From Candidatus Syntropharchaeum caldarium (GTDB lineage Archaea > Halobacteriota > Syntropharchaeia > Syntropharchaeales > Syntropharchaeaceae), in NCBI GenBank assembly GCA_001766815.1, contig LYOS01000003.1, positions 145,254 to 177,253 on the forward strand: a stretch of DNA of 32,000 bases, given 5' to 3'. Positions 1,639 to 26,910 of the stretch are shown here, piece after piece. The first letter of the stretch is position 1. Each line of letters begins with the position of its first letter. The notes under the pieces are model-generated. The model ran no database searches, had not been told where the DNA came from, and worked only from the letters and a program-made list of their open reading frames with translations. A program made the position numbers and the translations under genes.

Positions 1639-1650
1639 TAACTGAATAAC

Positions 1651-2121: not shown

Positions 2122-2153
2122 CTTAAAACCCTCCATATAATCGATGATCAGAA

Positions 2154-3568: not shown

Positions 3569-4383
3569 TTAAGCGGCTCCATGAGACCCTGTTTTGAGAG
3601 GAGTTCGCCAGATTTTGCATGAGGCGCTCTTGATAGTGTGTCCTGCCCCTTCTCAATCTCTCTTGCCTCATCTGCAAGTAGAGCTGCTTCCCTGATAAGC
3701 TCATGGGCTGCTGCTACCATCATCGTGTATGCCTCGGGATCTTTCATCATGAAGCACGCCTTTGAGTCGAGTTCTCCAACCTTCTCAGCCATACTGTAGG
3801 CTGCAATCGCCTTTGCACGGGCGTATGGGTTTGAGAAATTGGCGCGTTCTGTGACGATCTCGGCTGTCGCAATGATCTGAGGAAGTGTAACTTCTTTGCC
3901 TGCCTTGATCTCCTCGATAACACGATCGATCTCTTCCTGCACAAGCCTCGAAGCTCCACATGCAGATAATACCTTCAAAACATCGGTGTTAAAGAGTGCC
4001 ATCTCGGTTGGATCGAGGAACTCCCGCCTTGCACCGATCATCGGATCACCTGGCAGGATGATATAGCCGAAGCCTTTCTCCTTCATTGAATCTACTGCCT
4101 TCTTTGCAGGACCATCTGAGATAACGATACAGGGTTTACCCTCAAACGCCTCCCTGACGATCTTTGGACCTGGAAGTGCAGCGTTCGGGCTTGTTACGAT
4201 GAGAAGATCGGGCTCCCATTTGAGAAAACTCAATACGTCCTGTGCCTCAGGCTTTCCCATCTTTGCACCCGTACCTGCAACTCTTACGTCGATATCCTCG
4301 CGATCTGCCCGCTCATCGAGAAGCAGGTTCACAATCAATGACATTCCGATATTTCCAAGTTTTATGAAACCGACTTTAACCAT
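3565..4383 (-). CDS. mtd: F420-dependent methylenetetrahydromethanopterin dehydrogenase
   Basis: MVKVGFIKLGNIGMS...LLDERADREDIDVRV...GARREFLDPTEMA...NPYA..KA.AA...LADEAREIEK...PHA matches Mtd along its length, by recall of the Methanopyrus and Methanosarcina Mtd sequences. Confidence 0.9.
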   Translation of the reverse strand: MVKVGFIKLGNIGMSLIVNLLLDERADREDIDVRVAGTGAKMGKPEAQDVLSFLKWEPDLLIVTSPNAALPGPKIVREAFEGKPCIVISDGPAKKAVDSMKEKGFGYIILPGDPMIGARREFLDPTEMALFNTDVLKVLSACGASRLVQEEIDRVIEEIKAGKEVTLPQIIATAEIVTERANFSNPYARAKAIAAYSMAEKVGELDSKACFMMKDPEAYTMMVAAAHELIREAALLADEAREIEKGQDTLSRAPHAKSGELLSKQGLMEPLK

Positions 4384-5731: not shown

Positions 5732-6973
5732 TTATTTAAATTTATCTTTTTTTACCACACAAACCATCTCACCCTCCTCAATGATCTCAACTTCTTCCTC
5801 AATCGCAATATAACCATCAAGATCGATCAGTGTTTTTATCGCGCCCGACCCACCGGCAACAGGCAGGGCGCGAAGACTTCCATCAACATTTTCAAGCTTA
5901 ACGGGCATAAACTCATACCTGCCCCTGGCAGAATATATCCTCTTTCCTGCCTCTGCAATCACCTTCTCCTCTTTCTGAGGTTTGATACCCACCATATCTC
6001 GTATTACAGGCTCAATCAATCTTTCAAATGTTATCATCGCAGATACAGGATATCCAGGAAGCCCAAATAGAGAAATACCATCACAGACGCCAAATATGAA
6101 TGGTTTTCCAGGTTTTATCATAACACCATGGATCAGAAGCTCGCCGAGATCCTCAACAACCCTGTATAGCATATCTCCCCTGCCAGCCGACGTCCCTCCA
6201 GAGAGGATGATTATATCAAACTCTTCGGTGATCGCGTCACGTACCGCCTGGAGAAGTTCGGAATATCTATCCTGCACCCGTCCCTTGAAGACAGCATCTG
6301 CGCCAAGATCGAGGAGTCTGGTCATGATCATGTAAGTATTCGCATCAAAGATCTTGCCTGGTCCAAGTATTTTCCCTGGAAGTTCAAGTTCATCCCCGGT
6401 AGAGATTACAGCAACGCGGGGCTTTCGCACCACTTTTATCCGATCCAGACCAACTGCTGCGATGGCGCCAATCTCGCGTGAAGCGATCACCTTGCCTTTT
6501 GGAAAGAGAAGTTCTCCCTTTCTGATATCACTCCCTCTCGCCTGGATATTTTCGCCTGGCGCAACAGACCCATAGATCGTGACAATATCGTCCCCGCCCT
6601 TTTCGGTCTGTTCAACCATTATCACAGCATCTGCGCCTTCTGGGATGGGTGCGCCTGTTGCAATCTCAACAGCCTCACCAGATGTTATCGCGGTCGCTTC
6701 TGCATCCCCTGCTCGCAGAGATCCTGTAACCTTCAGCGTTACACCCTCTTCTTCAGAGGCTCTGAACGTATCGGCTGCCATAACCGCATACCCATCCATC
6801 AGCGCACGGTCGAATGGTGGCAGGTCAATCGGTGCATAAAGATTTTCGTATAAAATCTTGGAAGAGGCATCCATGAGAGGGGTGACCTCAAAACCCTCAA
6901 GCATCGGGACGTTGGCTTTAATGATCGCTTCTGCTTCCTGGATCGAAACCAAACGCAGAAAACCTTCTCCCAT
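5732..6973 (-). CDS. moeA: Molybdopterin molybdotransferase MoeA (paralog 2)
   Basis: Motifs seen are PPFDRALMDGYAV, ...ISTGDEL..., ...ILSGGTSAGRGD... and ...KPGKP...GLPGYPVS. The start is reset to ATG 6973 because the track start 6979 is TTG. GGTGGAGG lies upstream. Confidence 0.85.
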   Translation of the reverse strand: MGEGFLRLVSIQEAEAIIKANVPMLEGFEVTPLMDASSKILYENLYAPIDLPPFDRALMDGYAVMAADTFRASEEEGVTLKVTGSLRAGDAEATAITSGEAVEIATGAPIPEGADAVIMVEQTEKGGDDIVTIYGSVAPGENIQARGSDIRKGELLFPKGKVIASREIGAIAAVGLDRIKVVRKPRVAVISTGDELELPGKILGPGKIFDANTYMIMTRLLDLGADAVFKGRVQDRYSELLQAVRDAITEEFDIIILSGGTSAGRGDMLYRVVEDLGELLIHGVMIKPGKPFIFGVCDGISLFGLPGYPVSAMITFERLIEPVIRDMVGIKPQKEEKVIAEAGKRIYSARGRYEFMPVKLENVDGSLRALPVAGGSGAIKTLIDLDGYIAIEEEVEIIEEGEMVCVVKKDKFK

Positions 6974-6975
6974 AT

Positions 6976-8187
6976 TCAAACCTCCACCACTGGATAACAG
7001 TATGCCTCAACCATACTACCAGCATCGATACCCTCAAGCGGTTCATCCACCAGAATAAATCCATCTGCTACACTCATTCTACCGATCGAACCCGATCCAC
7101 CTGTACCAAGTGGTTCAAGGGCGATCTTTCCCTCTTTATTCTGTATCTTTACCCGCACAAAATCAAGCCTCCCAACCTGCGAAGGTATCTTTCGAAGAAG
7201 TTCTGCACGGATCACCTTATACGGCATCATCCCTGCATCCAATCCCTGCATAATATTAAGTGCAGGGCGCACAAATAGTTCAAATGCAACGATGGCAGCA
7301 ACAGGATAACCAGGTAGGATGAATACGGGCGTTTGATCGAGAAAACCAAAACCCACGGGTCCACCAGGCTTCACAGAAACACCATGAAACAGAAGCTCGC
7401 CAAGTTGATCAATAATTGCCGCAAGATAGTCTTTATCACCGACAGAGCTTCCACCACTTACAAGAATCAGATCAAAGCCAGAAACAGACCTTATCGCACG
7501 TTTGAGGGTTTCGAACTCATCCTTAACAATACCACATCGCACAGGTTTTCCGCCTGCATCGGCGACGAGGGATGCAAGCGTGAAGCTGTTGATATCAGCA
7601 ACCTTTCCAGCACGCCTGCCTGCATCATCGAGTTCTTCAGGATCAACGATTTCATCACCTGTTGAGATGATCGCAACCACAGGAGACCTCAGGACAGGGA
7701 CTGAGGTGACACCAGCTGCAGCGAGCGTTCCCAGATCATGCGGGAGCAATCGTCTACCCTTACCAAGAATTAAACTTCCTGCCCTGATATCCTCACCCCT
7801 CGATGCCACATTCTTTCCTGGAACAACTGCCCGTGAAATCTCGATAATGCCCTCGCCAGCCTCTCTTGTATACTCCATCATCACAACAGCATCAAACCCC
7901 TCAGGTACAGGCTTTCCCGTCATGATACGCACTGCCTCAGACCCTTCTCGCAGTCTGATCGGATTTTCAGGGGTTGCATAGAAGGTGGAGCTTGCGATAA
8001 CCGCATAGCCATCCATTGCAGCTCTATCAAATGGCGGATGATCGCAACAAGCATGAATGTCGGCTGCAAGTACTCTTCCTGATGCATCAGAGAACTTTAT
8101 TAGTTCAGAGTTGAGTGGATGGATCGACGAGTGTACCATTGCGATCGCACGACTGGCTGTGATCTTTCGCTGGAACATCGCAGTCAT
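6976..8187 (-). CDS. moeA: Molybdopterin molybdotransferase MoeA (paralog 1)
   Basis: Motifs seen are PPFDRAAMDGYAV, ISTGDEI, VSGGSSVGDKD and KPGGP...LPGYPVA. It lies in tandem with the second moeA; the stop and next start are 2 nt apart. Confidence 0.85.
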   Translation of the reverse strand: MTAMFQRKITASRAIAMVHSSIHPLNSELIKFSDASGRVLAADIHACCDHPPFDRAAMDGYAVIASSTFYATPENPIRLREGSEAVRIMTGKPVPEGFDAVVMMEYTREAGEGIIEISRAVVPGKNVASRGEDIRAGSLILGKGRRLLPHDLGTLAAAGVTSVPVLRSPVVAIISTGDEIVDPEELDDAGRRAGKVADINSFTLASLVADAGGKPVRCGIVKDEFETLKRAIRSVSGFDLILVSGGSSVGDKDYLAAIIDQLGELLFHGVSVKPGGPVGFGFLDQTPVFILPGYPVAAIVAFELFVRPALNIMQGLDAGMMPYKVIRAELLRKIPSQVGRLDFVRVKIQNKEGKIALEPLGTGGSGSIGRMSVADGFILVDEPLEGIDAGSMVEAYCYPVVEV

Positions 8188-8204: not shown

Positions 8205-8822
8205 TTAAAGTTTCGCATGATGACCTGCCGCGACAATGATATCCTCGGGACTGTTGATATTTGAGAATGTCAAAAGTGATGGGTCAAGGCGCTTAATCTC
8301 ATCAATACGCACATATCTCACGTCGAGCCGATTTATAAATTCAAAGAGTTTTTTCTCACCATGACTGATACAGAGGTCTGTTGCAGTTAGCGTAGAATCC
8401 CGCCTGTAAACGCTGTGGAGGCTTTCTATATCCCCATTCTCCCAAATCGGAACAACAGCATCATAATCCTCGATCAACATAAATAATTGCTTGATAACAT
8501 CTGTCTTCAGGTTTGGCATGTCACAGCCGGTTAGAAAAACAACCTCTGAAGTAAGAGCCTTCATTGCAGCATTTATACCTGCTATAGGACCATATCCCTC
8601 GACTTCATCAACTACAATCCTGATATTTTTTCCCTCAATGATTTTATCGAGTTTTTTCGCCTGTTTATAGGATCGGAGTGATATGAGAATCTCTTCAACC
8701 AGATCGTAGAGGGCATCTATTACATGCGCGAGGAGCGGCTTTCCATTGAGCTGAATCAGTGATTTATCTCTAAAACCGAACCTTGAACCTCTTCCACCTG
8801 CAAGTATTACCGCCGCGCGCAT
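8205..8822 (-). CDS. mobA: Molybdenum cofactor guanylyltransferase MobA
   Basis: MRAAVILAGGRGSRFG...K.L..L.GKPLL.H is the nucleotidyltransferase P-loop typical of MobA. The start is reset to ATG 8822, preceded by AGGAGTGA; the track start 8831 is GTG. Confidence 0.8.
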   Translation of the reverse strand: MRAAVILAGGRGSRFGFRDKSLIQLNGKPLLAHVIDALYDLVEEILISLRSYKQAKKLDKIIEGKNIRIVVDEVEGYGPIAGINAAMKALTSEVVFLTGCDMPNLKTDVIKQLFMLIEDYDAVVPIWENGDIESLHSVYRRDSTLTATDLCISHGEKKLFEFINRLDVRYVRIDEIKRLDPSLLTFSNINSPEDIIVAAGHHAKL

Positions 8823-8855
8823 TAACTTCACTCCTGCAAAAAATAGATGTATGAA

Positions 8856-13348: not shown

Positions 13349-15127
13349 GTGGGTGTGGACACGGATCTTGAATCAATCGAATCAGTGACTGACCAGAGCA
13401 AAACAGATCTTGATCTTGATATGAGCATCTTTCTTGATAATAAGAAAGATGAACTGATGGAATTTTTTGATGATGATGTCCTCGAAAATTTTGATAAAAC
13501 CCTTCAGGAGATCGAGTACAAAGAACTTGTCTATGATACATCCGACGTAAAAAAAGAGGCAAAGGGACTGAAAAGACTCAAGAACCTCTTTAAGAAGCAG
13601 CTTGAGATCGAACCTTATGATCCTGATCTACATGGTCCCCTGTGCGTCTTTGAGGGGTTACCTGGCTATGAAGAGGTTGAACGGTACTGGCTTCGGGAAC
13701 CCTACTCCTTTGCGGTGATTCTCTACAACAGGGACAGTGATGATCACATATATTATGTCGTTGAACCATATATGCGCGATTTTGAGAAGGTCCTGCTCCA
13801 GGACATCAAGAATCGGCTTCGCGATACTCTGATTGCGGTTAAACTTGACGAAGAGACCAACAAAGAACTGATTCTCAAGGAAAAAGTGAACGAGATTATT
13901 CTTGATTACAGACTGCGTCTTGAACCCGTTACCTACCATAAGATTCTCTACTACGTGCTGAGGGATTATCTGGAACTGGACAAACTCACACCGATCATGC
14001 AGGATCCACTGATAGAGGATATCTCATGCAATGGATGGGATCAACCTGTATTCCTCTTCCATAAGAACTACCTTAACATACAGACGAATATTTACTTCAG
14101 CGAGGCTGAGTCAAACTCGTTCGTGGTGAAGCTCGCACAGAAGAGCGGAAAACACATCTCAATCGCAGAACCAATGGTTGATTCCACGATGCCAGATGGC
14201 AGCAGGATACAGATGACGCTTGGAAAGGAAGTGACAACCCATGGTTCAACATTCACGATCAGAAAGTTCAAGGATGTCCCGATAAGCCCTGTGGATCTCA
14301 TTGGATGGAAGACTTTTTCCTCTGAATCGATGGCGTACCTCTGGATGTGTATCGAGAATAACAAGAGCCTCATCTTTGCAGGGGGGACAGCTTCTGGCAA
14401 GACCTCTTCGCTCAATGCGGTCTCACTCTTCATCCCGCACAAAGCAAAAATCATCACACTCGAGGATACAAGAGAGCTTAAACTACCACATCCGAACTGG
14501 ATACCAGATGTAACCCGCGAAGCGCTTTCACAGGATGGAAAAGGAAATATCGACATGTACGAGCTTCTAAGAGCTGCACTTAGACAGCGCCCTGAATATT
14601 TGCTGGTAGGCGAGGTCAGGGGCAAAGAAGCGCTGACGTTATTCCAGGCAATGTCAACCGGGCATACAACCTTCTCAACGATGCATGCTGATGCAGTCGA
14701 TACGGTGATCCACAGGCTTGAAAACCCACCGATCAGTGTCCCGAGAACGATGATAGAGGCGCTTGATATCGTATCGATCCAGTCCCAGACATTCTCTGGA
14801 GGAAAAAGGGTGAGGCGAAACCTTGAGCTTGTGGAGATCAGCGAGATCGACCCGTCAACACGGAATATCAAGACGATCGACGTCTTCAAATGGGATCCGT
14901 CAAGAGATGTATTCGAGCGTGTCGGAGAATCGAAGGTTCTCAATGATATTATGACATTCAGGGCATGGAGCAGGAGTGATATGGAGTATGAACTGAAGAA
15001 ACGGCAGGCAGTGCTTGATTACATGCTTGAAAACAACGTGAGGGATTTTGATGCGATAGCAACGATAATTCACGCTTTCCAGGCAAATCAGGAGAAAGTC
15101 ATGAGCAAACTCAATATTAAGGTATAA
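13349..15127 (+). CDS. Archaeal type IV pilus / archaellum-type secretion ATPase (FlaI/ArlI-like, VirB11/GspE superfamily)
   Basis: Walker A FAGGTASGKTSSLNA; ITLEDTRELKL; Walker B/His box PEYLLVGEVRGKEA..LFQAMSTGH...STMHA. The first ~70 aa form an acidic N-terminal extension. GTG start preceded by TAGGGGG. Confidence 0.85.
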   Translation: MGVDTDLESIESVTDQSKTDLDLDMSIFLDNKKDELMEFFDDDVLENFDKTLQEIEYKELVYDTSDVKKEAKGLKRLKNLFKKQLEIEPYDPDLHGPLCVFEGLPGYEEVERYWLREPYSFAVILYNRDSDDHIYYVVEPYMRDFEKVLLQDIKNRLRDTLIAVKLDEETNKELILKEKVNEIILDYRLRLEPVTYHKILYYVLRDYLELDKLTPIMQDPLIEDISCNGWDQPVFLFHKNYLNIQTNIYFSEAESNSFVVKLAQKSGKHISIAEPMVDSTMPDGSRIQMTLGKEVTTHGSTFTIRKFKDVPISPVDLIGWKTFSSESMAYLWMCIENNKSLIFAGGTASGKTSSLNAVSLFIPHKAKIITLEDTRELKLPHPNWIPDVTREALSQDGKGNIDMYELLRAALRQRPEYLLVGEVRGKEALTLFQAMSTGHTTFSTMHADAVDTVIHRLENPPISVPRTMIEALDIVSIQSQTFSGGKRVRRNLELVEISEIDPSTRNIKTIDVFKWDPSRDVFERVGESKVLNDIMTFRAWSRSDMEYELKKRQAVLDYMLENNVRDFDAIATIIHAFQANQEKVMSKLNIKV

Positions 15128-15143: not shown

Positions 15144-17096
15144 ATGTTCGAAAATATCAATTTCTTCATGCGTTTTGCATTCTCGATCTTTGGTCCACGA
15201 CTAAAGCGGAACAAGGATAACTATATTCAACTTCAGACAGATCTCAGGAAGGCGCGCATGCCGATCTCATATGATATGTATATGTCAGCAGCACAGGGCT
15301 ACGCACTGGTAGCAGGCATTTTTGGTGGCATACTGGGTCTTATACTTGCATATCTTATCATAAACGTATTTGGGATTCCTGATAACTTCACAAACCTGCA
15401 TTTACCACAGAGCCTTTTATGGATGAACGCACACGTGGAGACTCTGCTCACGATATTCCTCTTCTTCTTTACCGCGATGATATTTTCAGCAACGGTCTAT
15501 GTATTCTTCTACATATACCCTTCACTCGTTGCAGGAGGTAAGAAGGCAGAGATAAACAAGATGCTCCCGCATGGGATACGATTCATGTATGCACTCTCGA
15601 AAGGTGGTGCAAACATCATCGAGATATTGAGGGCGCTTGCAAGAAATGAAGATACATATGGTGAGATTTCGAAAGAAGCAGAGGCGATCATCAAGTACAT
15701 TGACTTTTTGGGGTACGATCTGAGAGAGGCGCTGCTTCACGCAGGTGAGGAGACGCCATCTGATAACTTCAGGGAACTCATTGATGGACTTCTGACAATA
15801 ATCGACAGTGGTGGGGACATGACTCGATTCCTCAGTGATAAGACGATCGAGTACATGCAGATCGCCAAGATTGAGCAGAAAGGATTCCTTGAAACGCTTG
15901 CGCTAATGGCTGAATCCTATGTGACAGCGTTTGTAGCGGGACCGCTCTTTATCATCATCATCGAGGTTGTGATGACGCTGATGGGTTCGGGGCAGATGAT
16001 GGCGCTCTATGCAATTATATATATGGTCATCCCGGTTGGATCGCTGATGTTTGTCATGATGATATATCTGATCTCGCCGAGTGACATTACAAATGCACCC
16101 ATTCTGAAGACCGAGTTCTCATATGATGCTGAAGATGTGGAGATTGAAGATGTTGATCCTGAAGATGTGGAGGCATACACTCAGTACAAAAAATCCAAGA
16201 AAACATATGCTTTAAAGGAGATGCTTAAGCATCCGCTCAAACCGTTCAAGGAGAATCCCATATTGGTACTCGCTGTGAGCGGTCCACTTGCTCTGATCAC
16301 CGTGATTGCGGGGGTTGGAATGAACTTCGATGACTTCAGGATGGACCCGGTGGGGGTCATCGATGACTATCTTGTGCTTGCTGCATTTGTGATGTTTCTG
16401 CCGCTTGTCATATTTTATGAAGCGAAACGGAGGCGACACAAGAAAATTAAATCCCAGGTGCCAAACTTTTTGAAAGGAGTTGCCAGCACAAACGCAAGTG
16501 GAATGACACTCACCCAGTCAATTGAGGTGATAGCAAAGTCAACAAGTGGAGCAATAGGAGAGGATATCGCCCGTATGTGGCGTGATCTTGAATGGGGGAT
16601 CAGCGTCAGGGATGCGTTTGTCCGTTTTGCAAACAGGGTCAAGATGGCATCGCTATCAAGAACTGTCACACTCCTGACTGAGACGATGCGAACGAGCGGG
16701 GAGGTTGCTGATACACTCTATCTCTCTGCAAAGGATACTGAGATGGCAGAGGAGCTTGATAGAGAACGGTTTACAAATATGCTGATTTATATAATTATAA
16801 TCTATATCGCATTCTTTGTATTCATAGGGATTATATTCATCATCTCAACCTCGTTCCTTCCTGTGATGGCATCGGCTGGAAAAGATGTTGCAAGTTCTGG
16901 TATGAGTGCAGAAGGCTTCCTTGGTGAGTTCGATATCGATCTCTTCAAGCGAATCTTCCTTCACGCATCGCTTCTGCAGGGATTCTGCTCAGGTCTTATT
17001 GCAGGCCAGATGGGGGAGGGGGAGTTTCTTGCAGGTTTTAAGCACTCGCTGATCATGGTCCTGATAGCATATATAGCGTTCACGGTGTTTATATGA
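15144..17096 (+). CDS. Polytopic membrane platform protein (FlaJ/ArlJ / TadC-like, two T2SS-F type domains)
   Basis: 650 aa with multiple TM segments and two cytoplasmic helical domains, IRFMYALSKGGANIIEILRALA... and FLKGVASTNASGMTLTQSIEVIA.... It starts 16 nt after the ATPase gene stop. Confidence 0.8.
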   Translation: MFENINFFMRFAFSIFGPRLKRNKDNYIQLQTDLRKARMPISYDMYMSAAQGYALVAGIFGGILGLILAYLIINVFGIPDNFTNLHLPQSLLWMNAHVETLLTIFLFFFTAMIFSATVYVFFYIYPSLVAGGKKAEINKMLPHGIRFMYALSKGGANIIEILRALARNEDTYGEISKEAEAIIKYIDFLGYDLREALLHAGEETPSDNFRELIDGLLTIIDSGGDMTRFLSDKTIEYMQIAKIEQKGFLETLALMAESYVTAFVAGPLFIIIIEVVMTLMGSGQMMALYAIIYMVIPVGSLMFVMMIYLISPSDITNAPILKTEFSYDAEDVEIEDVDPEDVEAYTQYKKSKKTYALKEMLKHPLKPFKENPILVLAVSGPLALITVIAGVGMNFDDFRMDPVGVIDDYLVLAAFVMFLPLVIFYEAKRRRHKKIKSQVPNFLKGVASTNASGMTLTQSIEVIAKSTSGAIGEDIARMWRDLEWGISVRDAFVRFANRVKMASLSRTVTLLTETMRTSGEVADTLYLSAKDTEMAEELDRERFTNMLIYIIIIYIAFFVFIGIIFIISTSFLPVMASAGKDVASSGMSAEGFLGEFDIDLFKRIFLHASLLQGFCSGLIAGQMGEGEFLAGFKHSLIMVLIAYIAFTVFI

Positions 17097-17609: not shown

Positions 17610-18338
17610 CTAAGATGATTCCAGTTTCCATCTCAATATATCGAAGATTAGATCATCAAACGGTCTTACCTTCTGGCAATATGCTGTGTGATGCTCATAG
17701 TTAGGATCGTCAAAGTAAGTCGTGGATTTCATTCTAACGAGTTCTAAATCATCGAGCTGATCAAAGAAACCCTTAAAACGCTCTATGTCTGCTTTTAGCT
17801 CTGGATCGTCTGTGCTCGCATAGTTCTTGATGATGTATATCCCATCTGTAAAACTCTCCAGCAATCTTCTCGCAGATGTGGATTCATCGCATGATTTTCC
17901 AAGTTCGCTCCTTTTCTTTCTGTATTGATCGGCGTCCTGTGTTAAACAGACGTATTTTATATTTGTGCTGATTCTGACGGTCAAACCCCAGAATGTAACC
18001 ATAACCTCTCTTGAATGGAATGAGACCTTACAGTTGATGACCCCCAAGATCTTCCAGTCTCCATCTAAGTGGTATAAAATGAGAATGTCGGTATCTGGAT
18101 ACTCATCTATCTGTTTCTGCCTGCAGCTATTCTTTACAGGTAGCTTGTTATATTCGATCAGGCAATCTGCAAGTACCTCGCTCTTTAGAAATTTGACCAA
18201 AGGGTTTCTTTCACCTTTGACCGCATAAATATCGTGTGAATTTAAAAACTGGTTCAAGATGTGAATTGCGATATCTTCAAGCCGCCTCCCGATCCTGGTT
18301 CTTTGACTTTGAGCGGTTTTATCATCCAAAATCGCCAT
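17610..18338 (-). CDS. Putative type II restriction endonuclease (PD-(D/E)xK-like)
   Basis: It lies 24 nt downstream of the methyltransferase gene. The candidate catalytic segment is YPDTDILILY...GVINCKVSFHSRE, that is PD ... xCK. The family was not recognised with confidence. GC is low in spot counts. Confidence 0.55.
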   Translation of the reverse strand: MAILDDKTAQSQRTRIGRRLEDIAIHILNQFLNSHDIYAVKGERNPLVKFLKSEVLADCLIEYNKLPVKNSCRQKQIDEYPDTDILILYHLDGDWKILGVINCKVSFHSREVMVTFWGLTVRISTNIKYVCLTQDADQYRKKRSELGKSCDESTSARRLLESFTDGIYIIKNYASTDDPELKADIERFKGFFDQLDDLELVRMKSTTYFDDPNYEHHTAYCQKVRPFDDLIFDILRWKLESS

Positions 18339-18362
18339 GATTTTACCTCGTACTTTTCGCCA

Positions 18363-19169
18363 TCATACGATCTCTTCAGCCACTATGTCGAGCTTAAGTT
18401 GATTTATGCCCGCCTCTGATATCAACCTGTTCTTTGCAATCTCACAGTATTCTCTATCGATCTCAACCCCTATTCCCTTCCTGCCAGTCAGGGCACAGGC
18501 GACCAGGGTTGTACCACTACCCATAAAAGGATCGAGCACCGTATCACCCACAAATGTGAATAACTTTATACATCTTCTTGGAAGCTCAAGGGGAAACGGT
18601 GCAGGATGCCCGATTCGTTTTTTACTCTCACCTGAGAAGTTCCATACCCCATTTGTCCACTCCATAAACTCATCCTTCACAATATCGGACTTTCCACTTC
18701 CGCTCGTCTTCTTCCAGCTATTCTTATACAGGACTGCGATCATCTCAACAGGGGCTATAACATAAGGAGCCGATGCAGAGAGCCATGAGCCCCATGCAGT
18801 TCTTCTCGATATATTCTGCTCATTCCAGATGATCGTTGAGTGATAGTTCCAGCCGATCTGCTTTGCGATGGTGACAATATCAGCATAGACACTTTGCTGT
18901 CCTCCTTTGTTCTTATCAAGCGGTATGTTCAGGCAGAACCTCCCATCATCTTTAACAAGATTGTATGCTCGCTCAAGCCATTTTTCTGTAAATTCAAGAT
19001 AAAGATCGTACGGAATCTCATCATCAAAAGAGCCGTAGCCGATATCGACGTTGTAAGGGGGAGAAGTTACGATTAAGTCTATTGTGCTATCTTCAATAGA
19101 TCGGTTGGCTAAGAAATCATCGTTGTATATCGTTATATCTCTGATCTGAAAGTAAGGGTCTCTGCTCAT
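18363..19169 (-). CDS. DNA methyltransferase, beta-class N4-cytosine/N6-adenine family (motif IV SPPY suggests N4-C)
   Basis: Motif IV DLIVTSPPYN is N-terminal. Motif I VLDPFMGSGTTLVACALTGRKGIGVEIDREY is C-terminal. HPAPFPLELP precedes motif I. This circular permutation is typical of the N4/N6 beta group. Confidence 0.85.
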   Translation of the reverse strand: MSRDPYFQIRDITIYNDDFLANRSIEDSTIDLIVTSPPYNVDIGYGSFDDEIPYDLYLEFTEKWLERAYNLVKDDGRFCLNIPLDKNKGGQQSVYADIVTIAKQIGWNYHSTIIWNEQNISRRTAWGSWLSASAPYVIAPVEMIAVLYKNSWKKTSGSGKSDIVKDEFMEWTNGVWNFSGESKKRIGHPAPFPLELPRRCIKLFTFVGDTVLDPFMGSGTTLVACALTGRKGIGVEIDREYCEIAKNRLISEAGINQLKLDIVAEEIV

Positions 19170-21283: not shown

Positions 21284-21373
21284 GATCTAAAACTGTGATA
21301 GAAGAGCGACTACTTAAAATTACCGAAACACCTCAAGGAGATTCTGAAAGCACAAAGATTAAAAAATGATAAG

Positions 21374-21410
21374 TAATATATAGAGCTATTCTAAATACAG
21401 TTGGACGGAG
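21374..21410 (+). promoter_or_regulatory. Candidate TATA box and SD site upstream of the mcrB-like gene
   Basis: TAATATATA at 21374-21382 lies about 37 nt upstream of ATG 21419. GGACGGAG at 21403-21410 is a candidate ribosome-binding site. Confidence 0.45.
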
Positions 21411-21418
21411 TTGAGTTT

Positions 21419-22777
21419 ATGAAAGAGAGAAATGACGTCATAGATCTCTACGATGAGAAGGGAGATATGCTTGCAGAAGCCATCCCTCTGCAGGCAATAA
21501 GTCCACTTCGTAATCAGGCCATCAGAGAGATGATCAAGACTATCAAAAGGTCTGCGATTATTAATCTCAAGAAGGCAGAGCAAGCATTGAAGACCGGTGC
21601 ACTCGGTAGTGAGATGGGTGTAGGCGAGGAGTGTCAGATACCAGGATGTGAGATGGATCTTGATATCGTGGCGAACGCCGGCGCGATTGCAGAGATGATC
21701 AAAAAGTGGATACAGGTCGACGAAGATGATGATACTGTTGTCGAGATTGTTGATGGTGGCGAGATGCTATTCATCCTTGCCCCAACAAAAAGAGTTGATG
21801 TTGGGAGTGACCTCGCAAACCCGCGTGTGAACGTTGGGATTGCGGCTGCACATGCAATAATCGAGTATTTCAACCTCTCACCGTTCAGTGGTAGTGAGGT
21901 TATCAAAGCTGCCATATTCGGCAGGTATCCGCAGTCAATAACCACAAAGGGTGCCTTATCAGGATTAATTCCTGCCTGGCCTCCAACCGTTGATGGTGTT
22001 GGTTTGAACTTCAGGACAAATATGGTGAATGATATCGTGGCAATGACAAACAAGAATACGATGAACGGCGTTGCACTCTCATCGATCCTTGAGCACGTAG
22101 CCATGTTTGATTCAGGGGATGCAATCCACCCTGCCTATGAGCGATACCACCTGCTCGGTCTTGCCTACCAGGGCCTGAATGCAAACAACGTGGTTTATGA
22201 TATCGTGAAGGCAAATGGCGCTGATGGAACGATTGGATCTGTAATAATGGATACAATCAAACGTGCAGAGGATGATGGAGTTATATCAGTAAAAGAAACG
22301 CTCCCCTCAGGATTCAAGATCTACAAAACAGATGATGCGTCTCTCTGGAACTCTTACGTTGCAGCAGGACAGCTTGCAGCAGTTATTGTTAACTGTGGAG
22401 CGATGAGGGCGGCACAGGGTGTCCCTGCCACGATAAATGAGTTCAATGATATATTGAAGCTCGCAACAGGGCTTCCCGATGTTGACTATGGGCGTGGACT
22501 TGGAACAACGATCGGTACTGCATTCTATTCACACAATATATATGGTGGAGCGGGCCCTGGAGCATTCTCACCTGCAAACCCGCTACTTCGACATTGCAGA
22601 GGCTTTATCAGTCCGTGCTTCGTGGCTGCGATGTGTCTTGATGCAGGCACCCAGATGTTCAATCCAGAGCTGACATCAGGCGCTTTCCTGAAAATCAGAA
22701 CCGTTCTGCCTGAAGTGATGAGAAATCCAATCAAATCGGTTGCAGAGTCGGCACTTGAACTTAAAGGAGCTTTGTGA
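21419..22777 (+). CDS. mcrB: Methyl/alkyl-coenzyme M reductase beta subunit homologue (divergent)
   Basis: The N-terminus MKERNDVIDLYDEKGDMLAEAIPLQAISPLRNQAIREMIKTIKRSAIINL parallels the canonical McrB start M..F.DK.DLYDDRG....VPLEA.SPL.N.AI..I....KR...VNL. The start is reset from TTG 21401 to ATG 21419. Confidence 0.85.
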   Translation: MKERNDVIDLYDEKGDMLAEAIPLQAISPLRNQAIREMIKTIKRSAIINLKKAEQALKTGALGSEMGVGEECQIPGCEMDLDIVANAGAIAEMIKKWIQVDEDDDTVVEIVDGGEMLFILAPTKRVDVGSDLANPRVNVGIAAAHAIIEYFNLSPFSGSEVIKAAIFGRYPQSITTKGALSGLIPAWPPTVDGVGLNFRTNMVNDIVAMTNKNTMNGVALSSILEHVAMFDSGDAIHPAYERYHLLGLAYQGLNANNVVYDIVKANGADGTIGSVIMDTIKRAEDDGVISVKETLPSGFKIYKTDDASLWNSYVAAGQLAAVIVNCGAMRAAQGVPATINEFNDILKLATGLPDVDYGRGLGTTIGTAFYSHNIYGGAGPGAFSPANPLLRHCRGFISPCFVAAMCLDAGTQMFNPELTSGAFLKIRTVLPEVMRNPIKSVAESALELKGAL

Positions 22778-22790
22778 GGAGGTTATAACG

Positions 22791-23564
22791 ATGAGAGAAT
22801 TTCAGATTCCGTATCCGGGTGATGACCCGGTTGCAAACAACCGAAAAAAGTGGATGAACTCTGAATTCACCCCAAGAAAGCTTAGAGAGATCAGTGATGA
22901 TGATATTGTAAGTCTTTTGGGGCACAGAAAACCAGGGACAGCATACTCATCTGTACATCCACCGCTTGATGAGATGAAAGAGGCGGCAGATCCAATAAAA
23001 GAGCTTGTTGTGCCGACGGATGGGGCAAAGGCAGGAGATCGAATCAGATACATCCAGTTTGCAGATTCAATGCACTTCGCACCTCTCCCCCCATGGATGC
23101 GGTTCAGGATGTATGGTGCGCGCCTGCGAGGGTTTGACTCGCTTGCATATTCAGGAAGGACACTCCTTGAGATGCGAGAGCGAGATCTTGATGAAACGGC
23201 CAAGTTTCTTGTTGAGACCGAAATCTTCGATGCTTCAAGGGTTGCAATGCGTTCTGTGACTGTGCATGGCTTCTCACTGAGACTGGATGAGGATGGGTTG
23301 ATGTTTGATGCCCGAAGGCGATACGTCTTCAACAAAGAGACAGGGGAAGTTGAGTATGTGAAGACACAGCGAGCAACGCCGCTCGACCGGCGAATTTCGG
23401 TTGGTAAACCGCTACCTGAAGATGAGCTTAAAACCCTCACGACGCGATACCATACCGCCCTGACATCCCCACGTGATGCGGATGAGCTGATAAAAGTTGT
23501 GAAGCGAGTGGGAGAACTGAGAGTTCTTGGGGGCTTAAGGCCAGATCTTGTAGATGGGAGGTGA
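22791..23564 (+). CDS. mcrG: Methyl/alkyl-coenzyme M reductase gamma subunit homologue
   Basis: Motifs seen are PGDDPVANNRKK, LREISDDDIVSLLGHRKPG, SVHPPLDEM, DGAKAGDRIRYIQFADSM, EMRERDLD, VHGFSLRLDEDGLMFD. Each matches a canonical McrG block. ATG 22791 is preceded by GAGGAGG. Confidence 0.9.
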   Translation: MREFQIPYPGDDPVANNRKKWMNSEFTPRKLREISDDDIVSLLGHRKPGTAYSSVHPPLDEMKEAADPIKELVVPTDGAKAGDRIRYIQFADSMHFAPLPPWMRFRMYGARLRGFDSLAYSGRTLLEMRERDLDETAKFLVETEIFDASRVAMRSVTVHGFSLRLDEDGLMFDARRRYVFNKETGEVEYVKTQRATPLDRRISVGKPLPEDELKTLTTRYHTALTSPRDADELIKVVKRVGELRVLGGLRPDLVDGR

Positions 23565-23570: not shown

Positions 23571-25256
23571 ATGGCAGTAGATAAAAAAACACACATAAAA
23601 TTACTTGAAGAGACGTTTAAAGTTTCACCGACTGATATCGTTGATAAAAAACTCTATCAACATGGTGGAACACGCCAGTCCAAGCGGAAGACTGAATATA
23701 TTGAGTATGCAAACAGAATTGCAAAAGAGCGTGGAATTCCCGCATACGACCCTGATCACATCGCACTTGAACTTGAGGTTGGTGTACCACTGGGTCAGCG
23801 ATACCTCGAGCCTGTAAAGATCAGTGGTACGGATGTCATGTGTGAGTATGAGGATCTTCACATCATGAACAATGTGGCGATCGAACAGATGGTCGATGAT
23901 ATCTTCAGAACGGCAATAGTGTGCATCGATCTTCCACACAAGGTTCTTGTGGACAGGTATGGATTTGAGGTGACTCCTGAGTCAATAAATACATACCTTG
24001 AGACGATCAATCACACGATGGTTGGTGGTGCGGTCACACAGGAGCATATGTGCGAGATGCATCCTGGACCCTGTGCCGATGGTTATGTCAAGATATTTAC
24101 AGGAAACGATGAGGTGGCCAGTTCACTTGACTCGCGATTTGTGATCGATATAAACAAGGAGTTTACACCAGAGAAGGCAGCAAAACTGAAAGAGGGGGTT
24201 GGAGATAGTCTCTGGCAGGTTTCAAGAGTTCCAACACATGCACTGAGGACGATGGATGGTGCCATCATCCACAGATGGAACGCGATGGGGCAGACGATGG
24301 CGTTCATCGCATCATACCACCTCTGTGCAGGTGAGGCTGCAATCTCAGACTTCGCCTATGCTGCAAAACATGCACAGTACATCTGGATGGGAACACCACC
24401 ATTTGTCTCAAAAGCGAGAGGGCATAACTCTGTGGTTGGACTTCCTGTAGGTTATATATTTGATATCATACAGCATGAGTCGGCGATGCCAGATGATCCA
24501 ATCCCGGTCAGTGCTGAAGGACTTGCGATGGAGTCGATCCTCTACTTCGCGCTCTACTACGGACAGATGATGATCGGTACTGTAGGTGTTACCGTTGCTC
24601 CGGCCACGTTCTATGTGAATGAACTCTACGAGAGCAGGGGTGCTCATCTTGTGGACTGGATCAAAGACAAATATGGAGGAATAGCCCAGGCACCGATGAA
24701 CTGGGACACAATCCATGATTGTACAGATGAGGCAACGATGGCAGCGATCGAAGAATATGATACCTACCCGCTGCTTCCAGAGCATCACTGGGGACTGATC
24801 CAGGCTGTACAGATCTCGTTGATCAGCAGTGCATGCGCTGCCTGGGCAACAGGGAAACCGATGGCTGGAGCGCTTGCAGCCCACTACTGCATGTCTTTCG
24901 TGCAGAAGGAAGCGCTGATGCGTACTGGCTGGGGTGGACAGGAATCCACGCACCATCCGGCGATGCCTGCGATGACATCTGTGCTTCTGGATGAGGGTCT
25001 GCCAGTAGAACTTACCGGTATCAATGTTCCGTTCAGATCTCCGTTTGCCGACTCACAACACTATACATCACATAGTGTTGTTGCAGCACATGAGGCAAGA
25101 ATGGATGCATGGGCGTTGTCGCCGATTGTGAAGGTTGCGTTTGCAGACCCCCACCTCCCATTCAACTTCCGCAATGTACGGGAGTCCGTAGCGAAGGGTG
25201 CACTCAGGGAGTTTGAGCCTGCGGGTGAGAGGGACGTACTAAGACCTACTAAATGA
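23571..25256 (+). CDS. mcrA: Methyl/alkyl-coenzyme M reductase alpha subunit homologue with a rewritten substrate pocket (candidate alkyl-CoM reductase)
   Basis: Conserved blocks: RGIPAYDPD, VPLGQR, EDLHIMNN, EVTPE, YLETINH, VTQEHM, YVKIFTGNDE, FVIDINKEF, AGEAAISDFAYAAKHA, DEGLP.EL, KVAFAD, KGALREFEPAGER. Divergent where canonical McrA has GGVGFTQYATAAY, FYGYDLQDQCG and RGPNYPNYAMNVGHQ (details in findings). Confidence 0.9.
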   Translation: MAVDKKTHIKLLEETFKVSPTDIVDKKLYQHGGTRQSKRKTEYIEYANRIAKERGIPAYDPDHIALELEVGVPLGQRYLEPVKISGTDVMCEYEDLHIMNNVAIEQMVDDIFRTAIVCIDLPHKVLVDRYGFEVTPESINTYLETINHTMVGGAVTQEHMCEMHPGPCADGYVKIFTGNDEVASSLDSRFVIDINKEFTPEKAAKLKEGVGDSLWQVSRVPTHALRTMDGAIIHRWNAMGQTMAFIASYHLCAGEAAISDFAYAAKHAQYIWMGTPPFVSKARGHNSVVGLPVGYIFDIIQHESAMPDDPIPVSAEGLAMESILYFALYYGQMMIGTVGVTVAPATFYVNELYESRGAHLVDWIKDKYGGIAQAPMNWDTIHDCTDEATMAAIEEYDTYPLLPEHHWGLIQAVQISLISSACAAWATGKPMAGALAAHYCMSFVQKEALMRTGWGGQESTHHPAMPAMTSVLLDEGLPVELTGINVPFRSPFADSQHYTSHSVVAAHEARMDAWALSPIVKVAFADPHLPFNFRNVRESVAKGALREFEPAGERDVLRPTK

Positions 25257-26095
25257 AGGTTGTAGCAGGAAGAGCATCAGCAGTACTCGGTTCAAGGGTT
25301 GCGGATGTGATTGAGGCAGATCTTGCCTTGACCGAGTTTGCACTCTTCCCCGATGCTGAACTCTACACTCGTGTTGTAGATGATCTGGTGGGCGATGAGG
25401 TTGTAATTGTCCAGAGCACGCCCACCGACACTGATTTTATCTGCCTCCTCCAGCTGATCGATGCGTGCGAGGGGGCATCCCGTATTTCAGTTGTAATTCC
25501 ATACTTTGGATATGCAAGACAGGACAAACGGTTCAAGATGGGTGAAGCAGTGACGGCTCGCGCGCTTGCAGGAACTGTCGAAGCAGACCGTATATTCACG
25601 ATAAATATTCACGACCAGAACGTGATCAATTACTTTAAATCTAAAGCATGTGATCTTGATGCTGCACCCGTGATTGGATCGTACATCAGTTCGCTGAACC
25701 TCAAAAACCCGGTTGTTATTGCACCTGATGATGGGGCGAAGGAGCTTGCGAAAGCCGTAGCATCAGAAGAAGGACTGAGCTGGAACTGGCTCAAAAAGAA
25801 GCGAATCGATGCTGATACAGTGGTAATTGATGATAAAGATCTCGACGTCGAAGGAAGAGATGTTGTGATCGTTGATGATATCATCTCAAGTGGTGGGACG
25901 ATCATGGAGGCAGCACGTATTCTGAAACAGAACGGTGCAGGTGCAATCTATGCCGGATGCGTACACGGCGTATTCGTGAAAAATGCAATTTTAAGACTTA
26001 AAAAAGCTGGAATCATACCTTTTTCAACCGACACAATCGAGTCGATCACAAGTTCAATGAGTGTCGCAGAGTGTATCGGTGCATCGATAATATGA
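25253..26095 (+). CDS. prs: Ribose-phosphate pyrophosphokinase (PRPP synthetase)
   Basis: Motifs seen are FPDAELYTRV, ...VIPYFGYARQDKRF, ...VVIVDDIISSGGTI (PRPP-binding loop). Its ATG overlaps the mcrA-like stop as ATGA at 25253-25256. Confidence 0.85.
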   Translation: MKVVAGRASAVLGSRVADVIEADLALTEFALFPDAELYTRVVDDLVGDEVVIVQSTPTDTDFICLLQLIDACEGASRISVVIPYFGYARQDKRFKMGEAVTARALAGTVEADRIFTINIHDQNVINYFKSKACDLDAAPVIGSYISSLNLKNPVVIAPDDGAKELAKAVASEEGLSWNWLKKKRIDADTVVIDDKDLDVEGRDVVIVDDIISSGGTIMEAARILKQNGAGAIYAGCVHGVFVKNAILRLKKAGIIPFSTDTIESITSSMSVAECIGASII

Positions 26096-26910
26096 TACAG
26101 ATATTTGGTGTGATTGGCGACCCCATCGGGCATTCGCTCTCGCCGGAGATGCATAACGCAGCATATCATGCACTGGGACTTGATTGTATATATCTGCCAT
26201 TCCACGTCAGAGCCGAAAGGCTGAGAGATGCGATCGAAGGGGCGGGGGCACTTGGAATAAGAGGGCTCAATGTGACGGTCCCACACAAAGTGGCTGTGAT
26301 GGAACTTGTAGAGCCAGATCTGCTTGCAAGAAAAATTGGCGCGGTAAATACGATCGATTTTGCCACATTAAAAGGATATAACACCGATGTAGCAGGAATC
26401 ACAGGCTCACTCGAATCTGCTGGAGTTGATCTCAGAGGCAAGCGTGTTCTTTTGCTTGGTGCAGGAGGGGCAGCGCGTGCAGCAGCATTTGCATCTATTG
26501 AAGCAGGTTGTAAACTTGTAATTGCAAACAGAACAAGATCAAAAGGTGAAAAGTTAGCAGATGAACTTGGAAGAGGGGTTAATGCAATTGGTCTCGAAGA
26601 TGATGAGATTGGGCCGGCTATAGCCGAATCCGATGTATTGATAAATGCAACGTCGGTGGGGATGTACCCTGAGATCGATAAAATTCCGATAAGGCCCGAA
26701 CTTCTGCACCCCGATCTTGTTGTTTTTGATCTGATATATAACCCATTAGAAACCATGCTCCTCAGTGAAGCAAAAAAGAAAGGATGTAAAACAATCAGTG
26801 GTGTGAAGATGCTTGTTTACCAGGGAGCCGCATCCTTCAGGATATGGCTGGGGATTGATCCACCTGTTGATGTGATGGAGACCGTTGTGAGGGAGAGATT
26901 GATTCTATGA
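26092..26910 (+). CDS. aroE: Shikimate 5-dehydrogenase
   Basis: Motifs seen are MIQIFGVIGDPIGHSLSPEMHNAAY, ...GLNVTVPHK, ...GAVNTI, ...GYNTD..G, ...LLGAGGAARA. The start is reset to ATG 26092, which overlaps the prs stop as ATGA. Confidence 0.85.
   Translation: MIQIFGVIGDPIGHSLSPEMHNAAYHALGLDCIYLPFHVRAERLRDAIEGAGALGIRGLNVTVPHKVAVMELVEPDLLARKIGAVNTIDFATLKGYNTDVAGITGSLESAGVDLRGKRVLLLGAGGAARAAAFASIEAGCKLVIANRTRSKGEKLADELGRGVNAIGLEDDEIGPAIAESDVLINATSVGMYPEIDKIPIRPELLHPDLVVFDLIYNPLETMLLSEAKKKGCKTISGVKMLVYQGAASFRIWLGIDPPVDVMETVVRERLIL

Follow-up and report, generated by a model that had tools for sequence, protein, structure and literature searches.

The acrA gene at positions 23571 to 25256 of the window (the whole 32,000-nt stretch of DNA that was analysed) encodes an MCR-type alpha subunit in which the substrate side of the active site is rebuilt on a near-canonical scaffold, and its product is predicted from the sequence to be a functional alkyl-CoM reductase (ACR) paralogue. 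The 561-aa product is 100% identical to OFV67773.1, annotated as the MCR alpha subunit of Ca. Syntrophoarchaeum caldarius, and by this match it is one of the four published MCR homologues (alkyl-CoM reductases) of that organism. The protein is already known, both in kind and in sequence, and has been public since 2016; a full-text literature search returned zero matches for the accession OFV67773 and nothing relevant for SCAL_ locus tags. The rebuilt pocket is real and conserved, yet it is an expected hallmark of the ACR class and not a new discovery. According to published reviews, both Syntrophoarchaeum genomes contain four divergent MCR homologues each, and in S. caldarius all four lie in operons.

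Operon organization

The acrA gene is the third gene of an operon with the order acrB-acrG-acrA, which comprises the following features together with its leader and downstream neighbours.

21340-21418, + strand: AT-rich leader 5' of acrB with a TATA-like 'taatatata' element and a GGAG ribosome-binding site; putative operon promoter, assigned by reading the sequence
21419-22777, + strand: acrB (mcrB), beta subunit, 452 aa; ATG at 21419 (mechanical ORF start, TTG at 21401); Pfam MCR_beta_N and MCR_beta
22791-23564, + strand: acrG (mcrG), gamma subunit, 257 aa; ATG at 22791 after GGAGG; Pfam MCR_gamma; orthologues also 257 aa
23571-25256, + strand: acrA (mcrA), alpha subunit, 561 aa; identified by Pfam, phmmer and AlphaFold2/Foldseek
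25253-26095, + strand: prs, ribose-phosphate pyrophosphokinase (Pfam); start overlaps the acrA stop as ATGA
26071-26910, + strand: aroE, shikimate dehydrogenase (Pfam); overlaps prs, co-oriented with acrA

The MCR alpha and beta domains (N and C each) and the gamma domain were detected in the three ORFs far above curated cut-offs, and AcrB is 100% identical to P0230. As an earlier note on this DNA had stated, the acrA ORF is intact and the subunit genes are tightly coupled, with a spacer of 6 nt between acrG and acrA in addition to the overlap with prs. The acrBGA-prs-aroE order is repeated at loci L002 and L003 and at the S. butanivorans locus L005; prs and aroE are syntenic neighbours that lie outside the enzyme.

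The arrangement differs from the mcrBDCGA-type operon of canonical MCR in that the order is B-G-A only. Neither mcrC nor mcrD was found in the acrB-acrG-acrA operon, the neighbours of which are aspartate dehydrogenase, prs and aroE. Modification and accessory genes (mcrC/D, ycaO-tfuA and radical-SAM methylases) were absent from the 32,000-nt window, where the surrounding genes are housekeeping, restriction-modification, pilus, Mtd and molybdopterin genes.

Retention of the fold and cofactor scaffold

Residue correspondences were obtained by phmmer against PDB chains 3pot_A and 1hbm_A and by MAFFT with 103 canonical McrA sequences. The best template was M. marburgensis MCR I (PDB 3POT, 1HBM and 5A0Y; 44-45% identity, TM-score 0.94-0.96, no large indels), and phmmer scored methanogen MCRs at ~470 bits (E ~1e-139) versus 330 bits (E 1e-97) for the ethane enzyme chain 7b1s_A. 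An AlphaFold2 model of the alpha monomer (pLDDT 83.5, pTM 0.88), of low confidence over residues 451-500 (pLDDT 54-66), matched canonical McrA chains 5n28_A, 7b2h_A and 1mro_A in Foldseek with TM-scores of 0.94-0.96 and an rmsd of 1.9 angstroms. As modelled, OFV67773.1 keeps the McrA fold.

The part of the subunit closest to the canonical form by these alignments is the following.

23571-24410, + strand: alpha N-terminal domain, residues 1-280; canonical-like, with the F430 lower-face contacts; MCR_alpha_N 346 bits

This domain bears the axial Gln157 and the CoB-phosphate anchors Arg235, Lys266 and His267. All motifs described in the earlier note were relocated at the positions given there, and every coordinate and residue number proved correct. 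VTQEHM (residues 155-160) keeps the axial Gln157 (canonical Gln147) at 24039-24041, AAKHA (residues 264-268) keeps His267 (canonical His257) at 24369-24371, and the glycine at the thioglycine position, Gly456 (canonical Gly445), is kept within RTGWGGQESTHHPA at 24921-24962. In canonical numbering, Q147, R225, K256, H257 and G445 were unchanged in both alignments. The axial Gln157, the lower Ni ligand (Gln in the MCR/ACR superfamily, or Met in some ACRs), is invariant in the clade described below, and the alpha' contacts to F430 are the canonical ones at 9 of 12 positions.

The partner subunits are similarly conservative. In beta, F361, I366 and Y367 are kept, F362 is replaced by Y and H379 by N; in gamma, Arg120, which anchors the CoM sulfonate, is unchanged, and Tyr takes the place of Leu117, a change also present in many non-Euryarchaeal and ACR gamma subunits. 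In common with M. marburgensis MCR I, the alpha subunit has the axial Gln, Gly445, the His257 site and, in alpha', Arg225 and Lys256; beta has Phe361 and Tyr367, and gamma has Arg120. Of the five basic CoB-anchoring residues, alpha Arg270 and beta His379 are lost and the other three kept. With these two and the CoB-thiol ligand Asn481 gone, a canonical mode of CoB binding is an assumption.

Counted over near-invariant canonical positions, the changes amount to 18/107 in the alpha N-domain, 55/91 in the alpha middle region, 2/21 in the alpha C-terminus and 18/125 in beta. The contrast between the first two values, in a gene under selection, bears out the view in the earlier note of a near-canonical N-domain and a rebuilt substrate side, as opposed to general decay. 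No other divergent group compared has an N-domain, beta and gamma as close to the canonical form as those of this operon.

Remodelling of the alpha pocket

The changes are concentrated in the middle of the alpha subunit, in the segments listed below.

24411-25070, + strand: remodelled middle region, residues 281-500, substrate-side pocket; recognized by identity and invariant counts
24408-24413, + strand: Ser280-Lys281 for Arg270-Arg271, the CoB phosphate contact and 5-methyl-Arg site; from the alignments
24576-24614, + strand: GTVGVTVAPATFY, F430/CoM pocket strand; G327T, F330V (Val340, 24588-24590), Q332V and Y333A (Ala343, 24597-24599)
24780-24803, + strand: EHHWGLIQ; F396W (Trp407), Gly397 deleted, Ile410 at the 2-methyl-Gln400 position, Gln411 on Arg401
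24921-24962, + strand: RTGWGGQESTHHPA, thioglycine loop; F443W, Y444G, Gly456 kept, Y446Q, D447E, D450H, Q451H and C452P
25014-25061, + strand: TGINVPFRSPFADSQH, CoB-thiol loop; Y478R, M480P, N481F (Phe492, 25044-25046), V482A, G483D and H484S

Identity to canonical McrA, at 46-59% over the N-terminal segments, drops to 24-34% in the middle region and returns to 57% in the C-terminal segment, and the Pfam MCR_alpha C-domain scores only 62.5 bits. The pocket segments were gap-free in both the phmmer and the MAFFT alignments, each of which gave R270S, R271K, F330V, Q332V, Y333A, F443W, Y444G, Y446Q, D447E, D450H, Q451H, C452P, M480P, N481F and V482A. Across the 103 canonical McrA sequences, these positions are 98-100% invariant. 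The replacements F330V, Y333A, F443W, Y444G, D450H, C452P, N481F and V482A, first proposed from a by-eye alignment, were all reproduced by HMMER and MAFFT, and the concordant alignments contained no indels hiding equivalents of Phe330, Tyr333, Phe443 or Tyr444, which rules out an alignment artefact masking the aromatics. Lys281, within VSKARG (residues 279-284), was likewise found at the 5-methyl-Arg271 position, with the nuance that 7 of the 10 compared clade members have Arg at this site; across the clade the residue at 271 is either K or R, and that at 270 is S except for an L in one member.

The retention of Gln400, also claimed in the earlier note, is probably wrong. It depends on the placement of a one-residue deletion: MAFFT, together with paralogous groups in which the additional Gly is present (EHHWGGxIR), sets a clade-conserved Ile410 at position 400 and Gln411 on Arg401. 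Because the Gln411 position (canonical Arg401) varies within the clade (Q, H, R or K), Ile410 is the more likely equivalent of Gln400. The EHHW motif itself is common to the OFV65745-type ACR group.

Relative to M. marburgensis, the replaced contact residues number 9 of 14 for F430 in the alpha middle region, 4 of 5 for CoM in alpha and 9 of 10 for CoB in alpha. Four modification sites are lost, namely Arg271 (now Lys), Gln400 (Ile), Asp450 (His) and Cys452 (Pro). The space around the methyl group, CoM and the CoB thiol is walled by a mostly aliphatic or Trp/Gly set in place of the canonical residues, and Phe330, Tyr333, Phe443, Tyr444, Asn481 and Val482, which are 99-100% conserved in the 103 canonical sequences, are all replaced (6/6).

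The number of polar contact residues falls from 7 to 3. Summed side-chain volume, a crude cavity proxy, decreases from 767 to 516 cubic angstroms over four first-shell residues (~250 less); over 22 contact positions the decrease by the same crude proxy is only ~120 cubic angstroms, and F443W, F396W, L320Y, S325I and N481F make contact positions larger. A larger substrate cavity is plausible, but was put too firmly in the earlier note.

Clade conservation, selection and phylogeny

OFV67773.1 belongs to a clade of at least 10 sequences from Syntrophoarchaeum, Alkanophaga and other Syntropharchaeia MAGs, representing at least two genera. The Ca. S. butanivorans orthologue (contig LYOR01000007.1) has 83% identity, equal length and the acrBGA-prs-aroE order, and the Ca. 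Alkanophaga volatiphilum and liquidiphilum orthologues have 63-64% identity, equal length and the acrBGA order. All of these share the motifs EHHWG(-)LI, RTGWGGQE.THH and NVPFRSPFADSQ, and differ by ordinary divergence only: either K or R at 271, and one or another small or aliphatic residue at 330, 333 and 452. Replacement residues such as W454, H461, H462, A493, D494 and I335 are conserved in >10 clade sequences from at least two genera.

The dN/dS was 0.063 overall and, against an 82%-identical relative, 0.085 in residues 281-500, by which measure acrA is under strong purifying selection. The 98-100% canonical invariance of the replaced positions, together with the conservation of most replacements in the clade under a dN/dS of ~0.06-0.09, indicates that the changes do not reflect chance, sequencing error or decay.

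In rough, distance-based neighbour-joining trees, whether built from the whole protein, from the N-domain or from the middle region, the clade falls in with the groups of OFV65745, P0128 and Helarchaeota. A chimera of a canonical N-half and an ACR C-half was rejected, as the grouping does not differ between separate trees of residues 1-280 and 281-500. In the literature, the divergent MCR branch takes in the four Syntrophoarchaeum copies, and Zehnle et al. assign the three acrA genes of Alkanophaga to the Acr branch. Since OFV67773.1 groups with ACRs of alkane-oxidising archaea, adaptation away from methane, as the earlier note had proposed, stands as the best reading. The notion that the pattern is special to this gene fell away, other non-ethane (C3+) ACR clades showing it too: the replacements F330V, Y333A, F443W, Y444G, Q400I, N481F, V482A and R270S have comparable changes in five other non-ethane ACR representatives.

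The Alkanophaga orthologues were labelled acrA_1 by elimination, the acrA_2 and acrA_3 sequences being different. So assigned, acrA_1 is transcribed at ~1.5-4 times the genome mean and 4-10 times below acrA_3; it is a weakly expressed gene and not the main alkane-activating copy. The function of the two Acrs besides acrA_3 is described as unknown by the Alkanophaga authors (Zehnle et al.).

Comparison with other ACRs

The highly expressed mid/long-chain ACR group (OFV67021 of Ca. S. butanivorans, Alkanophaga acrA_3 and P0128) shares Y333A, L320Y, R270S, V482A and F396W with OFV67773.1. It is also of the same motif class, with RTG[W/F]GGQE in common, Y444G throughout and F443W in P0128 and acrA_3. 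The group differs in having an N-terminal extension, a ~30-40-residue insertion after position 300 and a retained Phe330, and its copy is strongly transcribed on alkanes. In contrast, OFV67773.1 is of canonical length without the insertion, carries F330V, N481F and His450-His451, and has 18/107 changed N-domain invariants compared with 37 in that group.

The ECR of Ca. Ethanoperedens thermophilum (PDB 7B1S) has the same fold (TM-score 0.88-0.92) and belongs to the same alpha2-beta2-gamma2 family. It keeps F443, Y444, D450, N481 and V482, whereas OFV67773.1 replaces all five. ECR has a Met axial ligand, dimethyl-F430 and loop insertions forming a 33-angstrom gas tunnel, while OFV67773.1 has a Gln axial ligand and an alpha subunit of 561 aa (595 in ECR) without insertions relative to M. 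marburgensis. The tunnel insertions and largely canonical pocket that characterize the ethane-specific type are therefore lacking in OFV67773.1.

Proposed function and alternative readings

The acrB-acrG-acrA operon quite probably encodes an ACR paralogue that carries out an F430/CoM/CoB-type reaction on a non-methane hydrocarbon with rebuilt wall residues. The enzyme would bind F430, CoM and CoB and catalyse the MCR-type reaction alkane + CoM-S-S-CoB <-> alkyl-S-CoM + HS-CoB. Its pocket would be more hydrophobic and somewhat roomier, with the hydrogen-bond donors of Tyr333 and Asn481 gone. OFV67773.1 probably serves as an accessory ACR beside another, main one. In the Butane50 culture containing Ca. 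S. caldarius, butyl- and propyl-CoM have been detected, and the activity is ascribed chiefly to Ca. S. butanivorans. Within that butane culture Ca. S. caldarius is a minor member, and its role has been called unclear.

It is unlikely that this F430 enzyme has a role other than primary n-alkane activation, for example on branched or cyclic hydrocarbons, another thioether, another attack position or with altered thiol cofactor use, in which case the lost hydrogen-bond donors and CoB-anchor changes would reflect that different role. Several changes go beyond those common to ACRs and are specific to the clade: the paired exchanges of beta His379 for Asn and alpha Arg270 for Ser, alpha Tyr478 to Arg or Lys, a conserved His-His at 450/451 and Asn481 to Phe. 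The clade is kept beside 2-3 other ACR paralogues in two genera, and its Alkanophaga member (acrA_1 by elimination) shows low, substrate-independent expression while acrA_3 does the main work.

However, the residues kept include the axial Gln, alpha' Arg225, Lys256 and His257, beta Phe361 and Tyr367, and the CoM anchor gamma Arg120, so the basic CoM/CoB/F430 scaffold looks intact; the acrA_3-like group has the Arg270 to Ser change as well, and the gene neighbourhood has no pointer to another pathway. The corresponding proposal for the whole acrA_1-type clade, that it represents a functionally distinct F430 enzyme and not a mere chain-length variant, is similarly doubtful. If true, it would mean a different substrate class, a different regiochemistry (e.g. 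1- versus 2-alkyl-CoM) or a modified CoB binding mode. Under that proposal the N-domain, beta and gamma are near-canonical and the thiol side is rewired, and Arg478 possibly compensates for the lost CoB anchors.

Very little probability attaches to a redundant paralogue drifting toward loss of function, with the pocket changes representing decay. The weak C-terminal Pfam domain, the 60% of middle-region canonical invariants that are changed, the weak expression of the Alkanophaga orthologue and the minor standing of Ca. S. caldarius in its culture would fit such drift. Against it are the intact, translationally coupled 561-codon ORF, the confidently predicted fold and orthologue transcription above the genome mean, and it is largely refuted by the low dN/dS, remodelled region included, and by the conservation of the replacement residues across the clade. 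Least credible of all is a canonical methane-forming or methane-oxidising MCR with substitutions that are an alignment artefact: methanogen MCRs are indeed the best PDB matches, ahead of the ethane enzyme, and the N-domain, beta and gamma are canonical-like, but the host culture does not oxidise methane (review), the operon is without mcrC/mcrD, the clade lies beside ACRs in the distance trees, and the computed gap-free alignments, in which all six invariant pocket residues are replaced, refute it.

What is new here is residue-level detail on one ACR paralogue family and not a new system. To our knowledge, ACRs are the sole archaeal route for anaerobic activation of non-methane alkanes, and the ethane enzyme is the only ACR with a solved structure. 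Kept across two genera under strong selection, the acrA_1-type family joins one of the most thoroughly rewired alpha pockets, and clade-specific CoB-anchor changes, to a scaffold closer to the canonical form than that of any other divergent group compared. With this combination, the family would be a sensible choice for structural studies or heterologous expression aimed at the substrate specificity of ACRs.

Organization of the acr operon

Pfam domains of MCR beta, gamma and alpha were identified on three closely coupled, same-strand ORFs at 21.4–25.3 kb of the window.

21419-22777 (+), acrB, MCR beta
22791-23564 (+), acrG, MCR gamma
23571-25256 (+), acrA, MCR alpha

A 13-nt spacer containing GGAGG precedes acrG, 6 nt separate acrG from acrA, and the acrA stop shares an ATGA overlap with the start of the ribose-phosphate pyrophosphokinase gene. 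The gamma protein as deposited (P0350, 269 aa) begins within acrB (window 22740-22791); the ATG at 22791 following GGAGG, which gives 257 aa as in the orthologues, is the likelier start, and acrB probably starts at ATG 21419, not TTG 21401. ORF and Pfam annotation placed neither mcrC nor mcrD at the acrBGA locus, which is flanked by housekeeping genes (aspartate dehydrogenase, FAD oxidoreductase, prs, aroE, trkAH). The following genes were also annotated in the window.

17610-18338 (-), BsaWI-family endonuclease, half of a type II restriction-modification pair (17610-19169) just upstream of the acr operon
18363-19169 (-), N4/N6 DNA methylase, its partner
176-667 (-), Pilin_N-domain pilin of an archaeal type IV pilus
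13349-15127 (+), PilB3-like ATPase of such a pilus
15144-17096 (+), T2SSF-type membrane protein of such a pilus
3565-4383 (-), F420-dependent methylene-H4MPT dehydrogenase (Mtd), Wood-Ljungdahl
5732-8187 (-), two tandem MoeA paralogues, molybdopterin cofactor
8205-8831 (-), MobA, molybdopterin cofactor

The pilus genes may be relevant to how these archaea are described to live, forming consortia and using nanowires.

Residue changes in the alpha subunit

The alpha protein was aligned by phmmer to PDB chains, with M. marburgensis 3pot_A and 1hbm_A matched over their full length, and by MAFFT to ~100 canonical McrA sequences; a Methanothermobacter sequence numbered as M. marburgensis served as the reference. 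The earlier note had aligned the pocket by eye without gaps; its motif coordinates and residue numbers are all correct, and both programs crossed the three pocket segments without gaps and returned identical substitutions. These are R270S and R271K; F330V, Q332V and Y333A; F443W, Y444G, Y446Q, D447E, D450H, Q451H and C452P; and Y478R, M480P, N481F, V482A, G483D and H484S. Gln147, Arg225, Lys256, His257 and Gly445 are kept. At all these changed and kept sites the canonical residue is 98–100% invariant in the comparison set.

The note's retained Gln400 was probably a misassignment. Gln411 of the window protein aligns to Arg401 and varies (Q/H/R/K) across the clade of the window alpha and its orthologues, while the clade-conserved Ile410 sits at position 400. 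A one-residue deletion lies beside the GGSQ400 motif throughout the clade, where related alkyl-CoM reductase (ACR) groups keep an extra Gly (EHHWGGxIR). Since Ile410 falls at position 400 when aligned with these groups, the 2-methyl-Gln site is most likely lost too, in agreement with a review reporting Ile, His or Glu at this position in many MCR homologues.

Coenzyme contacts and pocket volume

Ligand-contact residues of MCR were taken from PMC12842094. The alpha' N-domain contacts to F430 are mostly kept, as are the CoB anchors Arg225, Lys256 and His257, beta Phe361, Ile366 and Tyr367, and gamma Arg120, the CoM sulfonate anchor. The substrate side is mostly changed: replacements affect 9/14 alpha-middle F430 contacts, four of the five alpha CoM contacts and nine of the ten alpha CoB contacts. 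Polar contacts fall from seven to three, shifting the pocket towards hydrophobic, and both hydrogen-bond donors to the CoM/CoB sulfurs (Tyr333 hydroxyl and Asn481 amide) are lost.

Side-chain volume was summed as a crude proxy for free space; at the four first-shell residues it drops by ~250 cubic angstroms. The net loss over 22 contact positions is only ~120 cubic angstroms by the same crude proxy because bulk is added by F443W, F396W, L320Y, S325I and N481F. By this proxy an ECR-like homologue is near canonical; values for the other C3+ ACR groups are in the range of the window protein. These sums and comparisons make it plausible that the pocket is reshaped, more hydrophobic and moderately larger.

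Two of the five basic residues holding the CoB threonine-phosphate are lost together in the clade, alpha Arg270 (Ser280) and beta His379 (Asn); the latter is kept in both other ACR beta subunits compared. An Arg or Lys at alpha 478 (Arg489 in the window protein) is conserved in the clade and may compensate for the lost anchors.

Comparison with known ACRs

Other non-ethane ACR representatives are replaced at the same positions (F330 to G/A/L, Y333 to T/A/R/I/V, Y444 to G/A, Q400 to I/L, R270 to S/G, N481 to S/I/T/Q). The highly transcribed mid-/long-chain group has the thioglycine-loop motif RTGWGGQE in common with the window protein (acrA_3, MRTGWGGQETQDH; OFV67021-type, LRTGFGGQEVQAH) but is extended at its N-terminus and has an internal insertion, neither of which the window protein shows. 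The ethane enzyme 7B1S, the only solved ACR, differs in keeping F443, Y444, D450, N481 and V482 and in its loop insertions, Met axial ligand and dimethyl-F430. Judged from the aligned sequences, beta His379 to Asn with alpha Arg270 to Ser, alpha Tyr478 to Arg/Lys, His-His 450/451 and Phe 481 look specific to the clade.

Relatives and phylogenetic placement

The window alpha matches OFV67773.1 at 100% identity; this protein of Candidatus Syntrophoarchaeum caldarius carries the annotation MCR alpha. Both Syntrophoarchaeum genomes hold four divergent MCR homologues, all four in operons in Ca. S. caldarius (two reviews). The clade is tight (62–100% identity) and comprises the Ca. S. butanivorans orthologue (83%, with the acrBGA-prs-aroE order of the window), another Syntrophoarchaeum MAG, Ca. 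Alkanophaga volatiphilum and liquidiphilum (63–64%), a tar-biofilm Halobacteriota MAG and a MAG labelled Methanospirareceae. Beyond the clade, the best matches (43–47%) are canonical MCRs mixed with the Syntrophoarchaeum/Alkanophaga ACR group of OFV65745 / acrA_2 type. When representatives clustered at 50% identity were searched exhaustively, only some twelve clusters of full-length McrA came up, the clade being one.

Rough neighbour-joining trees of the whole protein, residues 1–280 and residues 281–500 all put the clade together with divergent, ACR-type sequences, so a canonical/ACR chimera was rejected.

Three loci in other genomes were recorded. In GCA_054798995.1, a MAG labelled Candidatus Methanospirareceae (ANME-1 family), contig JBTNFS010000034.1 carries a complete clade acrBGA operon at 207-4044 (alpha 69% identical); this points to an error in binning or labelling of the MAG or, alternatively, to an ACR in a relative of ANME-1. 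On a 73-kb contig of ENA ERZ26872901, a clade acrA (P0008, 10001-11689) stands alone at the contig end beside an amidohydrolase, with acrB and acrG absent upstream; the same data set holds a second, Alkanophaga liquidiphilum-like copy (P0009), which may reflect recent duplication or splitting of acrA, as reported for other ACRs. The orthologous operon of Ca. S. butanivorans lies on LYOR01000007.1 (73,955 bp), and OFV65745-type acr genes (P0126, beta P0290) lie on an equally long contig, so two of its four acr loci are probably on one contig.

Distribution of changes and selection

Among positions with an invariance of 98% or more in canonical McrA, those that differ in the window protein were counted, and beta was treated likewise. 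Changes affect 18/107 invariants in alpha positions 1–270, 55/91 in positions 271–490, 2/21 in the C-terminal tail and 18/125 in beta. These counts bear out quantitatively the proposed canonical N-half with a rebuilt pocket, a pattern somewhat more extreme than in other ACRs; other divergent groups have 24–50 N-domain and 36–58 middle-region positions changed.

Decay, which the earlier note had also discounted, was ruled out on three grounds. Against an 82%-identical relative, dN/dS was 0.063 overall and 0.085 in residues 281–500, values that are approximate because dS is near saturation. Many of the substituted residues are invariant within the clade (Ile 325, Trp 396 and 443, Thr 441, Glu 447, His-His 450/451 and Ala-Asp 482/483). 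An AlphaFold2 model of the window alpha (62-sequence alignment) had a pTM of 0.88 and matched solved McrA chains with a TM-score of 0.94–0.96 and an rmsd of 1.9 angstroms; confidence was lower across residues 451–500, which pack against F430 and other subunits in the real enzyme.

Function

The OFV67773.1 sequence has been public since 2016 and was counted within its genome's four divergent MCRs; as a sequence and a kind of enzyme it is already known. Divergent coenzyme-contact residues of the Syntrophoarchaeum homologues have been discussed in a structural review, and our literature search found no text naming OFV67773.1 or describing its residues. What the analysis adds, a description of the protein at residue level and the CoB-anchor changes specific to the clade, is therefore minor and falls short of a discovery.

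Ca. Alkanophaga has three acrA clusters, with transcription profiled on C5–C14 alkanes (Alkanophaga study). The acrA_2 and acrA_3 sequences in the source data belong to other groups, so the clade orthologues are acrA_1 by elimination; in these data acrA_1 is transcribed at ~1.5–4x the genome mean, 4–10x below acrA_3, whichever alkane was supplied. The Butane50 culture makes butyl- and propyl-CoM without methane use (two reviews), and Ca. S. caldarius is only ~2% of cells in butane culture. The clade is quite unlikely to do something mechanistically distinct. The best-supported reading of the sequence is that the window protein would be a functional ACR paralogue, acting on a hydrocarbon other than methane with F430, CoM and CoB.
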